Source: a virus (Duplodnaviria; Heunggongvirae; Uroviricota; Caudoviricetes). From it: DNA of 16,050 nucleotides. Under the pieces are notes generated by a model. That model worked only from the letters and a program-made list of their open reading frames with translations, did no database searches and was not told the origin of the DNA. The translations under genes and the position numbers were made by a program. Location of the stretch: IMG/VR virus record IMGVR_UViG_2558860161_000009; one strand, given 5' to 3'. This document shows positions 1 to 2,404 of the stretch, in pieces (within the stretch, counting starts at the first letter, position 1; each line of letters begins with the position of its first letter).

Positions 1-1224
1 ATGGCTGGCACAAACAAACTGAGCGACAAAAAGCTAAAAGCATTGCTGGGTTCTGAGCGTGAAGCGCCGATCATGATTGCCGATGGTGAGGGGCTAAGCG
101 TTAAGGTCTCGAAGCAAGGTAACGTTAGCTGGGTATTTTCATACCGGTTGGGAGGAAGGGGTAGCAAACTCGAACGTTTAACGCTTGGCCGTTACCCTGA
201 TATGCCGCTAAAACTTGCGCGAGAAAAGCGGGAACAGTGTCGCCAGTGGCTGGCTGGTGGGCTTGATCCGAAAACTGAGATTGAGCTGAGCACAGAAGAA
301 ACGCTTAAGCCTGTAACGGTTAAAGACGCCCTGGAATATTGGTTGGTGAATTACGCCAGGAGAAAGCGCAGTGATGAGGCGTTGGTGAGGGCGCAGCTAC
401 GCAAGCATATTTACCCGCGCCTTGGTCGTTATCCGATCACCAGATGTGAAACCCGCCATTGGGTGGCCTGTTTTGACGAAATAAACCAGACTAAACCCAT
501 GACCGCCGGCCGCATGTTCCAGATTTCTAAACAGGCGTTACGTTTCTGCAAGGTTCGCCGTTATGCTGCCAGTGATGCTCTGGCCTTTCTCACCATTCAG
601 GATGTAGGCCAGCCATCTGGTCAACGTGATCGCGTATTGTCAGATAGCGAGCTGGCTGATGTGTGGCGCTGTACAGATAGCGATGATCAGCAGCCGTATT
701 ATTCACGTCTGCTCAAAATGCTGGTGCTTTTTGGTGCGCGAACGATGGAAGTTCGCCTTTCTCGATGGTCAGAGTGGGATTTTACATCGTGGATTTGGAC
801 TGTACCGAAAGAGCATAGCAAAACCAGAGAGAAAATCGTGAGGTCGATACCTGAAGCTATACGCCCGTGGCTGGAAGAGTTAAAGCGCGAGACAGGGAAA
901 ACAGGTTTGTTACTGGGCGAAGATCGTACCCGTCAGGCTGTATCATTGAAAGGGCGCAGGCTTTTTAAAGATTTTCACCATAACGAGCCGTGGACACTTC
1001 ACGATCTGCGTCGGACGTTTTCTACGGGGCTAAACAATATGGGTATAGCACCGCATATAGTCGAGCTGCTGTTGGGCCATGCCTTGCCGGGAGTTATGGC
1101 GATTTATAACCGTAGTCTTTACTTACCGGAGAAGCTGGACGCGCTGAACAAGTGGTATGACCGCTTAGAACTTCTCGCGGGTAATCACTCTAATATCGTT
1201 ATTTTAAAGGCTGGTGAAAAATGA
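1..1224 (+). CDS. int: Tyrosine site-specific recombinase, P4-type satellite integrase
   Basis: 407-aa ORF starting at window position 1. N-terminal arm-binding region (KLSDKKLKAL...WVFSYRLGGRGSKLERLTLGRYP) and C-terminal catalytic region (HDLRRTFSTG...LLGHA...AIYNRS with the presumed catalytic Tyr) are typical of P4-like integrases. Confidence 0.9.
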   Translation: MAGTNKLSDKKLKALLGSEREAPIMIADGEGLSVKVSKQGNVSWVFSYRLGGRGSKLERLTLGRYPDMPLKLAREKREQCRQWLAGGLDPKTEIELSTEETLKPVTVKDALEYWLVNYARRKRSDEALVRAQLRKHIYPRLGRYPITRCETRHWVACFDEINQTKPMTAGRMFQISKQALRFCKVRRYAASDALAFLTIQDVGQPSGQRDRVLSDSELADVWRCTDSDDQQPYYSRLLKMLVLFGARTMEVRLSRWSEWDFTSWIWTVPKEHSKTREKIVRSIPEAIRPWLEELKRETGKTGLLLGEDRTRQAVSLKGRRLFKDFHHNEPWTLHDLRRTFSTGLNNMGIAPHIVELLLGHALPGVMAIYNRSLYLPEKLDALNKWYDRLELLAGNHSNIVILKAGEK

Positions 1225-2024
1225 GAATTAGCCACAAAAAAGATTTGCCAACATGGTTTGATTTAGATAACTACACTCAATTTATTGGCATGTCAGATAA
1301 AGACTTATTTTATCAGTTGGTTGTTAGATATGACATGCTTGAAAACTTCTATCGATATGGCGGGTCTTTTTATAATGAACCTCTTACAAATAACGATGAA
1401 GTAGGAAGGATACTTGGAAATGGCGCGGTCGCTAATGCGATTGATAGAGCTACGTACTTCTATGATGCGTTTAAACTTCCTATTAAAAGAGAAGGTGTTT
1501 TGTCTGGTGGGGTTGCGTTACGACCAATGTCCATTGAAGACTTTATTTATATGAAAGATGCTGTAGATAATTATATGGAAAATAATTTTACGGGAACGGC
1601 TGAAAATTTAGTTTACCATTCATTTACAAGTGTTAGCTCATTTTTGGAACCAAATGACCTTTTTATTAAAGTTGATTTGTCACGCCCGGATGATTTATTG
1701 ATTGATGTGTTTAAAAAAAACCTCAAGAATTGGCGTGAGGAATTAAAAATAAAAGAAAAGGAAAAAACATACCAGTCATGGGAAACAATTAAAAAAAAGG
1801 TATACGATTATTCACTTTTCCCCGTAGTTGATTTGATGATCTGGGCTAAATCTCGCGGGGCATGCGTCACCAATGGCGTGCTTGCTGTGGCTGTGTTTCC
1901 GAACGGAGAGTATGACTCAACGCAGATAGCGCAAACCGTAAAGCCAAATATAGAAAAAATCTTCTCAATTTCTTCTATAGAAAAAATCAGGTCAGAACTT
2001 CAGGATAGAAAAATTCTTCCTTAA
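1221..2024 (+). CDS. Hypothetical 267-aa protein, AT-rich orphan cargo gene; no recognisable domain
   Basis: Long uninterrupted ORF whose ATG overlaps the integrase stop (ATGA at 1221-1224). Markedly lower G+C than flanking genes (a 100-nt sample counted by eye is about one third G+C). I could not match any catalytic or DNA-binding motif. Confidence 0.7.
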   Translation: MRISHKKDLPTWFDLDNYTQFIGMSDKDLFYQLVVRYDMLENFYRYGGSFYNEPLTNNDEVGRILGNGAVANAIDRATYFYDAFKLPIKREGVLSGGVALRPMSIEDFIYMKDAVDNYMENNFTGTAENLVYHSFTSVSSFLEPNDLFIKVDLSRPDDLLIDVFKKNLKNWREELKIKEKEKTYQSWETIKKKVYDYSLFPVVDLMIWAKSRGACVTNGVLAVAVFPNGEYDSTQIAQTVKPNIEKIFSISSIEKIRSELQDRKILP

Positions 2025-2119
2025 TCTTGGTGGTCAAAACAATTTAATTTTCGTCTAGTGTGACATCCAATCACAAGGATAACAATAGCCCCCACAAACT
2101 TAGAAACAGTGGAGGCAAC

Positions 2120-2404
2120 ATGCAAATTATCACCTTTACCCCGCCAAATCCTGAACAACGCCGCACCATTCTGGAGGAGTACGGCTTCAAGTTCGATCGC
2201 CGAATCCGCGAAGATGAATGCAGCGAGATCACCAGTCTTTCTCGTTCGAGCCGCTGGAAGATGGAACAGCAGGGGCGCTTCCCGCCGCGCTGTCACTTTG
2301 GCCGCAACAGCTGTGCCTGGCTTCTTTCGGATGTGCTCTGGTGGGTTCGTAATCCGCCTGCCGTGGAAAACGTCAATAACCCGTACAGCCGCAAATCTGC
2401 TTAA
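2120..2404 (+). CDS. alpA: AlpA-family (phage regulatory, MerR-like HTH) transcriptional regulator
   Basis: Start chosen at the internal ATG 2120 preceded by GGAGG (2111-2115); the ORF track's 2060 start adds an unsupported N-terminal extension. The segment ITSLSRSSRWKMEQQGRFPP...GRNSCAWLLSDVLWWV matches the AlpA pattern (tG.SRST.W...G.FP...lG.r...W...dv..W). Confidence 0.8.
   Translation: MQIITFTPPNPEQRRTILEEYGFKFDRRIREDECSEITSLSRSSRWKMEQQGRFPPRCHFGRNSCAWLLSDVLWWVRNPPAVENVNNPYSRKSA

Follow-up and report, generated by a model that had tools for sequence, protein, structure and literature searches.

The 16,050-nucleotide viral record IMGVR_UViG_2558860161_000009, which as a whole stretch is called the window here, is 100% identical to a chromosomal island of Escherichia coli B1172 situated between gcd and hpt, a putative satellite resembling those phage-inducible chromosomal islands (PICIs) that form capsids. 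Our subject is the single gene that lies in this island between int, the gene of the integrase, and alpA, the gene of a regulator and excision factor; we refer to it as the slot gene. Taken together, the evidence below makes it more likely that this gene helps control excision of the island than that it serves phage defence. The features of the locus are as follows.

1 to 1224, plus strand: int, a P4-type tyrosine integrase of 407 aa (Pfam Arm-DNA-bind_3, Phage_int_M and Phage_integrase; RefSeq).
1188 to 2085, plus strand: variable cassette made up of the C-terminal tail of Int, the slot gene and about 60 bp of spacer (blastn breakpoints).
1213 to 1224, plus strand: putative translational-coupling junction, the Shine-Dalgarno (SD)-like GGTGA (1213-1217) with ATGA (sequence).
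1221 to 2024, plus strand: slot gene, a DUF6387 protein of 267 aa (PF19924), all-alpha in the AlphaFold2 (AF2) model and acidic, with an isoelectric point of 5.4.
2088 to 2116, plus strand: predicted hairpin in the alpA leader, with the SD sequence of alpA (GTGGAGG) in its 3' arm; fold -10.2 kcal/mol, z -1.85.
2120 to 2404, plus strand: alpA, an AlpA-family regulator/excision factor of 94 aa (Pfam Phage_AlpA; RefSeq).

The initial annotation had pointed to a 267-aa open reading frame (ORF) between int and alpA that starts on the integrase stop codon, and such a frame is indeed present at 1221-2024 on the plus strand; RefSeq annotates the same coding sequence in E. coli B1172 as 'DUF6387 family protein'. 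In the sequence ATGA its start codon ATG (1221-1223) and the stop codon TGA of int (1222-1224) overlap, and the purine-rich, SD-like GGTGA sits 4 nt upstream of the start. The frame is also as AT-rich relative to its flanks as had been stated: its G+C content is 0.356, where int has 0.502 and alpA 0.551, and in sliding windows the value stays at 0.32-0.39 within the ORF and about 0.5 in the flanks. The slot ORF is a real gene, because a full-length Pfam match is combined with purifying selection on its homologues.

It is not, as had been supposed, an orphan. The protein matches PF19924 with 103.2 bits (cut-off 28.9; E 2e-29), its residues 2-249 aligning to profile positions 3-249 of 258. An exhaustive profile search recovered, at E <= 1e-3, about 1300 clusters (50% identity), and among the 150 best clusters listed almost every one is a single-domain protein of about 230-370 aa. 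Conservation over the full length extends to about 20% identity. An alignment of 144 diverse members contains a single invariant column, D204, and eight nearly invariant positions (F13, Y18, R36, L168, R172, L205, W208 and P227), and no catalytic, enzymatic or toxin motif is found in it. The ratio of nonsynonymous to synonymous substitution (dN/dS), taken from one unsaturated pair, is 0.20 for DUF6387 versus 0.054 for int, and the homologues are under purifying selection; amino-acid change in DUF6387 is 2.5-3 times faster than in int. The AF2 model, built on a deep alignment, is all-alpha with a mean predicted local distance difference test score (pLDDT) of 89.7 and a predicted template modelling score (pTM) of 0.83, and in it conserved helices at the N-terminus (1-45) and at the C-terminus (157-262) flank a variable middle. 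Foldseek found no counterpart of this model in the PDB or among viral models and profile searches of PDB sequences with DUF6387 returned nothing, so that the modelled fold is one for which a solved structural counterpart is lacking; searches of NCBIfam and PHROGs with the family gave nothing informative. The earlier statement that no motif or function could be assigned, for which profile and structure searches had been proposed, is therefore right about function and about solved structural relatives, and wrong about the family itself, which Pfam assigns.

Several known types of protein were compared with the slot protein and set aside. Recombination directionality factors (RDFs) of the Xis, TorI or AlpA type are basic winged-helix proteins shorter than about 100 aa, a description that the DUF6387 protein does not fit. 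No helix-turn-helix (HTH) match to Pfam is found in it, and this, together with its orientation, which is that of alpA, also separates it from PICI master repressors of the Stl or Rpr type. PADLOC-DB 2.0, with 5027 models, yields no family for DUF6387 at E <= 1. At 1949-2019 of the window, within the 3' end of the coding sequence, two 100% identical copies of TATAGAAAAAATC stand 27 nt apart; ATAGAAAAATTC, counted as a third copy, and a partial one in inverted orientation accompany them. We rejected the TATAGAAAAAATC repeats as operators or iterons since they encode a conserved IEKI...IEKI peptide and recur as coding sequence in homologues; judging from the sequence, the repeats at 1949-2019 are probably driven by coding.

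The family is tied to one position. We collected 20 distinct DUF6387 loci, from near-identical copies down to relatives that share about 22% of their residues with the window protein, in Escherichia, Klebsiella, Serratia, Yersinia, Enterobacter, Xenorhabdus, Edaphovirga, Tenebrionibacter, metagenomes and viral contigs. In 20 of 20 the gene is directly downstream of a P4-type int on the same strand, alpA then follows in all 19 that extend far enough, and this lock holds in islands with different replication and capsid modules. The int-DUF6387 junction is ATGA in 15 loci, an 11-nt overlap in one and a gap of 88-145 bp in four; among the first 11 homologous loci, ATGA is preceded by GGTG or AGGT in 10, and the ATGA junction is seen also in L021, L032, L034 and L057. 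In every one of the 11 loci measured, in hosts from Xenorhabdus to Serratia, the G+C content of DUF6387 lies 9-20 points below that of its own int (10-20 in 10 of them) and 15-23 points below that of its own alpA. Low G+C is a family trait, because it recurs in every homologue measured across hosts, and hence the composition does not mark the gene as foreign to the island, as the initial annotation had read it; by comparison of these sequences, the ATGA overlap and the AT-richness are both family traits rather than marks of recent foreign insertion.

Nor does the gene look like free cargo, another earlier suggestion, as it is locked downstream of int in all 20 loci and has practically no presence in phage and plasmid collections or in PADLOC. 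Among 50,697 phage records there is one 1.8-kb DUF6387 fragment, and among 72,556 plasmid records a single one with DUF6387, which has the gene content of an excised circular capsid-forming island. The latter (L032, CP018459.1, Klebsiella pneumoniae pKp_Goe_795-4, 16,971 bp) was deposited as a non-mobilizable plasmid; it carries int-DUF6387-alpA, capsid and terminase, which is the gene content of an excised PICI, and between terminase and int a 3.4-kb gene annotated as tail tape measure, unusual for this tail-less type of island. PICI-like islands at the proA site in E. coli and Escherichia albertii (L060-L063) hold a common DUF6387 allele of 293 aa located 143 bp downstream of int, and the 90% cluster of this allele has 374 member sequences. 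In the published EcCIMP1, of the proA neighbourhood, the slot holds a small ORF about one tenth the size of UvrB. The window's own allele occurs in only 13 of 5426 complete E. coli genomes, although other alleles are common. One genome (H2, NZ_CP026935.2, E. coli CFS3292) has a 4.7-kb region that is otherwise 99.9% identical to the window, where the annotation places an IS1A transposase and names two features 'DUF6387 family protein'; the annotation alone suggests an IS1 insertion near or within the DUF6387 gene, and if the gene is interrupted in CFS3292, the host tolerates its loss.

Comparison by blastn of the window with eleven related E. coli islands showed that the slot is variable among them, in agreement with the initial annotation, and that the variation has sharp limits. 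On the left, homology ends exactly at 1187, 37 nt before the int stop, in 8 of 11 islands, so that the last 12 or so codons of int (from 1188), which contain the ribosome-binding site (RBS) and the start codon of the slot gene, are within the variable cassette; on the right it resumes at 2080-2140, at or beside the alpA leader (2097 in L015). As the breakpoints indicate, the cassette is apparently bounded by recombination and replaced as a block in related islands. One island whose Int and AlpA are 92% and 95% identical to those of the window encodes an unrelated protein, of our family B, in place of DUF6387. Conversely, DUF6387 and AlpA proteins 99.6-100% identical to those of the window are encoded by a capsid-forming island at another attachment site, whose Int is only about 60% identical overall, and in L014 a block corresponding to 985-2490 is 97% identical within an otherwise different island at another attachment site. 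Alleles of the family itself are deeply divergent: those of the window, L020 and L030, all from E. coli, are only 26-32% identical to one another, and islands with 91-98% identical Int carry DUF6387 alleles 29-37% identical.

All E. coli slot occupants are AT-rich (0.34-0.40 G+C) whatever the protein family, and in the satellite islands of E. coli examined the slot holds a single gene of 216-313 aa (two ORFs in one case), the range being 216-330 aa over the satellites examined; known multi-gene or defence systems were never found in the slot of the satellite islands examined, and PADLOC-DB 2.0 gave no family for five other slot occupants. Family B, of 262-313 aa, occurs in L013 (7320-8108), L016, L018, L027-L029, L035, L037, L052 and L056; it is acidic and AT-rich, has no Pfam match, is located only between int and alpA, and has a conserved N-terminus, IPLREYYxLSRAAELLGCxxxDLIHWA, that resembles an HTH of the excisionase or MerR type. 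A third family (family C, 216 aa; L015 2737-3387 and L017 2686-3336) overlaps the int stop by 1 nt and is followed in both islands by a 600-bp non-coding gap before alpA. No family match was obtained for it; weak hints of a metallopeptidase and of an AlpA-type HTH stayed below threshold, and the metallopeptidase reading was dropped, the motif being AHKIGH and not HExxH. In CP4-57 of E. coli K-12 (L041), the element in which AlpA was first named, one uncharacterised gene likewise separates intA from alpA; this gene, yfjH (317-318 aa), lies on the opposite strand, and its sequence is related neither to DUF6387 nor to family B. Hidden homology of DUF6387 with family B or YfjH was rejected, as hhalign probabilities were 0.2-1.5%, and a local 'DLxxWA' match that recurred in these comparisons was not significant. 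In one case, L019 (E. coli Ec1120, gcd site), an int gene 86% identical to that of the window is followed by a WYL (BrxR-like) gene and the defence system BREX; this is a non-satellite island and the sole BREX case after a related int, and one integrase lineage therefore serves satellites as well as a defence island.

The right edge of the cassette is marked by the alpA leader hairpin. An equivalent hairpin lies directly 5' of the alpA start in L002, L007, L016, L020, L027 and L028, and its arms co-vary across loci (CCCCCAC/GTGGAGG, CCCTCAC/GTGAGGG and CCTCCAC/GTGGAGG). Islands of the shorter-alpA type (L003, L005, L008-L010 and L021) have a GC-rich hairpin at that place instead, and in L003, L005 and L009 it is followed by a T-run and then the alpA ATG, an arrangement that looks like an intrinsic terminator. 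These leader sequences suggest that alpA may be kept off by sequestration of its RBS or by termination of read-through from int. Rfam gave no match in the window, the alpA leader hairpin included.

Regarding the host element, the B1172 island is about 15 kb long and, according to the RefSeq annotation and Pfam matches, has a complete head and packaging set of capsid, protease, portal, connector, HNH, TerS and TerL together with the P4-type int, alpA, an ORF6N protein, a DUF927 primase and SSB; no tail or lysis genes were found in it by the same means. By gene content alone the island is thus placed among the capsid-forming PICI-like satellites, which are recognised by int, alpA, a primase or replicase, their own capsid and packaging genes, the lack of tail and lysis genes and a size of about 15 kb, all present here. 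Another satellite type, the PICMIs (for phage-inducible chromosomal minimalist island), was rejected as the host element, for these are about 5-7 kb long, have no capsid genes and lie downstream of fis.

PICMIs nevertheless supply the closest experimental precedent for the slot gene. In these satellites of Vibrionaceae (Barcia-Cruz et al. 2024), a gene that overlaps int and precedes alpA has been named 'iolg' (PMC10803314). Of 35 PICMI subfamilies, 21 have iolg (overlap of 1, 4 or 13 nt; ATGA in 14), four have a contiguous gene (icg) and three have no gene, and these genes make up 13 families that are unrelated to one another and have no known function (PMC10803314). Deletion of iolg from PICMI115 abolished excision, packaging and transduction, and the authors proposed an excision complex in which Int and IOLG, both produced constitutively, work together with AlpA, whose production the phage induces (PMC10803314). 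The slot gene of the window has the same position and direction, with int at 1-1224, the slot gene at 1221-2024 and alpA at 2120-2404, all on the plus strand, and its overlap with int (ATGA, 1221-1224) is of the commonest iolg kind. Hence the claim that the gene represents an undescribed system no longer holds: its positional class has been described as iolg (PMC10803314) and as the 843-bp companion gene of ROD21-like islands (PMC6035254). Family and position both have precedents: the family is catalogued, though uncharacterised, and the position was described, and in part tested, in satellites of another family.

We tentatively read the slot gene, with a confidence somewhat short of even, as an accessory protein of the excision module, of the iolg class and made together with Int. 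On this reading the gene would be transcribed with int and translated by coupling, and its product would be made constitutively and stoichiometrically with Int while the island is integrated. DUF6387 would work by binding and not as an enzyme, being an all-alpha protein whose scaffold is conserved and whose middle varies, and would act within the Int/AlpA excision switch, either as a third component of the excisive complex or as a modulator that holds Int inactive for excision until AlpA is produced after infection by the helper phage. That DUF6387 acts in excision here, and how, is what we infer by analogy. The sequences favour such a role through the position lock over deep divergence, the conserved coupling, a pairing with alpA that persists where int lies far away, and the lack of the family in any other context; the analogy adds the knockout phenotype of the PICMI iolg. 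Fast evolution together with block swapping suggests that the cassette carries a specificity determinant.

Several observations weigh against this reading. Complementation of the iolg deletion used int and iolg together, so that a polar effect or an effect on the int tail is possible (PMC10803314), and the IOLG of PICMI115 (type d, VCHA34P115_150119) is likened to DUF6387 by architecture, not by sequence. EcCICFT073, an experimentally functional, helper-inducible PICI, has no gene between int and alpA; because of this and of the three PICMI subfamilies without a slot gene, the function is not universally required. In addition, the same or nearly the same Int adjoins DUF6387 alleles 29-37% identical or unrelated families, a tolerance hard to square with a tight physical partnership with Int. 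The region from attL to int is 92-98% conserved whichever slot family is present, and this constancy of the arm argues against family-specific DNA sites, which we accordingly rejected there.

The chief competing explanation, which we consider possible though rather unlikely, is that the gene is accessory conflict cargo, that is, a single-gene anti-phage, helper-interference or superinfection-exclusion protein in an int-proximal hotspot shaped by an arms race. This would account for a cassette with sharp limits and variable content, where at least three unrelated protein families and deeply divergent alleles are found, and for a rate of amino-acid change in DUF6387 2.5-3 times that of int; the low G+C of the occupants (0.34-0.40) is frequent in accessory genes carried by mobile elements of E. 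coli, BrxR and BREX stand after a related integrase at the same gcd site, and some functional PICIs are without a slot gene, which is therefore dispensable for the basic life cycle. However, real defence genes roam among contexts, whereas DUF6387 is confined to the int-alpA slot in 20 loci and practically absent from the 50,697 phage and 72,556 plasmid records. It has no match in the 5027 PADLOC models or NCBIfam and no enzymatic or toxin motifs; E. coli satellite slots hold single genes, the lone BREX case (L019) being non-satellite, and the reported PICI defence hotspot is elsewhere, between att and int. Nothing positive supports a defence role for DUF6387, although it could still have one.

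Less probable still is a helper-sensing regulator of alpA analogous to Stl, in which a diversified protein would keep alpA or AlpA off until a helper protein binds it, each cassette bringing its own sensor and the adjacent alpA promoter or leader. There is room for such a factor, as Gram-negative PICIs have no known repressor and the helper signal inducing alpA is unknown (PMC6092414). On the strand of alpA, DUF6387 always immediately precedes it, also in ROD21-like islands, where int lies apart; the cassette ends on the right against the conserved leader hairpin, family B has an N-terminal HTH-like motif, and rapid diversification fits recognition of variable phage proteins. On the other hand, DUF6387 has no HTH match in Pfam, it and family B are both acidic, and the gene is co-directional with alpA, whereas stl is divergent; EcCICFT073 is helper-inducible without a slot gene, and convincing operator repeats are missing, those of TATAGAAAAAATC encoding the IEKI motif. 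As to the notion that no functional protein is made and the slot is an AT-rich spacer acting as DNA, for example in H-NS silencing, with an open frame by chance, the low G+C of all slot cassettes regardless of protein family and the H-NS homologues encoded by ROD21-like islands would suit it. Yet protein conservation over the full length to about 20% identity in about 1300 clusters, a dN/dS of 0.20, a confident AF2 fold (pLDDT 89.7) and a conserved start codon and SD sequence all oppose it, and by conservation and dN/dS we regard it as effectively refuted.

If the slot gene belongs to the excision module, a wider view may be taken. By analogy, DUF6387, the iolg of PICMIs and the gene that accompanies the excision factor of ROD21 may be one class of proteins without known fold, exchanged as cassettes at P4-type integrases. 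Going further, and here we are doubtful, DUF6387, families B and C and the PICMI IOLGs could be interchangeable, fast-diversifying third components of the Int/AlpA switch that are made along with Int, gate excision and possibly set the helper or signal; such a class would extend over PICIs, both capsid-forming and classical, as well as PICMIs and ROD21-like islands, in Enterobacterales and Vibrionaceae. In helper sensing and the switch from integration to excision, AlpA is the only known player in Gram-negative satellites, and the link among the three observations makes the question testable in E. coli with standard genetics. Were the third-component class real, recombination control would have a widespread class of proteins, structurally new and until now unrecognised, that could account for the coupling of induction to specific helpers in Gram-negative satellites. 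Should the slot gene prove a defence determinant instead, it would be a new single-gene family.

Compared with known systems, the slot gene shares features with several. In most of the ROD21-like (EARL, for enterobacteriaceae-associated ROD21-like) islands, an 843-bp gene of unknown function accompanies the excision factor (PMC6035254), and in the EARL island ICEKp258.2 the companion gene, annotated DUF6387, is directly upstream of alpA at the end opposite int (PMC10763509). The likeness covers the DUF6387 family over its full length and the place immediately upstream of an AlpA-type gene; the difference is that the EARL gene is distant from int and so not translationally coupled. The EARL islands are moreover conjugation-related, unlike phage satellites, and encode H-NS homologues. 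Defence hotspots have been reported between psu and int in P4-like satellites and between att and int in PICIs, and like the cassette they are variable blocks with conserved flanks, exchanged by recombination, AT-rich and fast-evolving; they hold recognisable, often multi-gene systems that are found elsewhere, whereas the slot holds one gene of slot-restricted families. Stl of the Staphylococcus aureus pathogenicity islands is, like the slot gene, int-proximal, highly diversified and expressed in the quiescent state (PMC6092414), but the slot gene has no demonstrable HTH and runs in the same direction as the activated operon.

The PICMI iolg is like the slot gene in its position between a P4-type int and alpA, its strand and its ATGA overlap, and like the slot in its many unrelated families, some elements having a gap or no gene; the elements themselves differ, a PICMI being 5-7 kb long and located at fis in Vibrio, and the host here a capsid-forming E. 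coli island of about 15 kb between gcd and hpt. Many related capsid-forming islands of E. coli (L014-L017, L020 and L028-L031) adjoin yhdJ, which we take to be the neighbour of fis in E. coli K-12, and PICMIs of Vibrio are reported to attach at the 3' end of fis. Three small viral contigs with the PICMI attachment sequence gave no integrase match and, by ORF sizes alone, are not PICMI-like. Other viral contigs with this sequence (the fis 3' end) encode integrases 53-57% identical to the window Int and of the same clade, behind which comes DUF6387 with ATGA in L057 and family B in L052 and L056, and in L057 the PICMI attachment sequence lies directly upstream of the int-DUF6387 pair.

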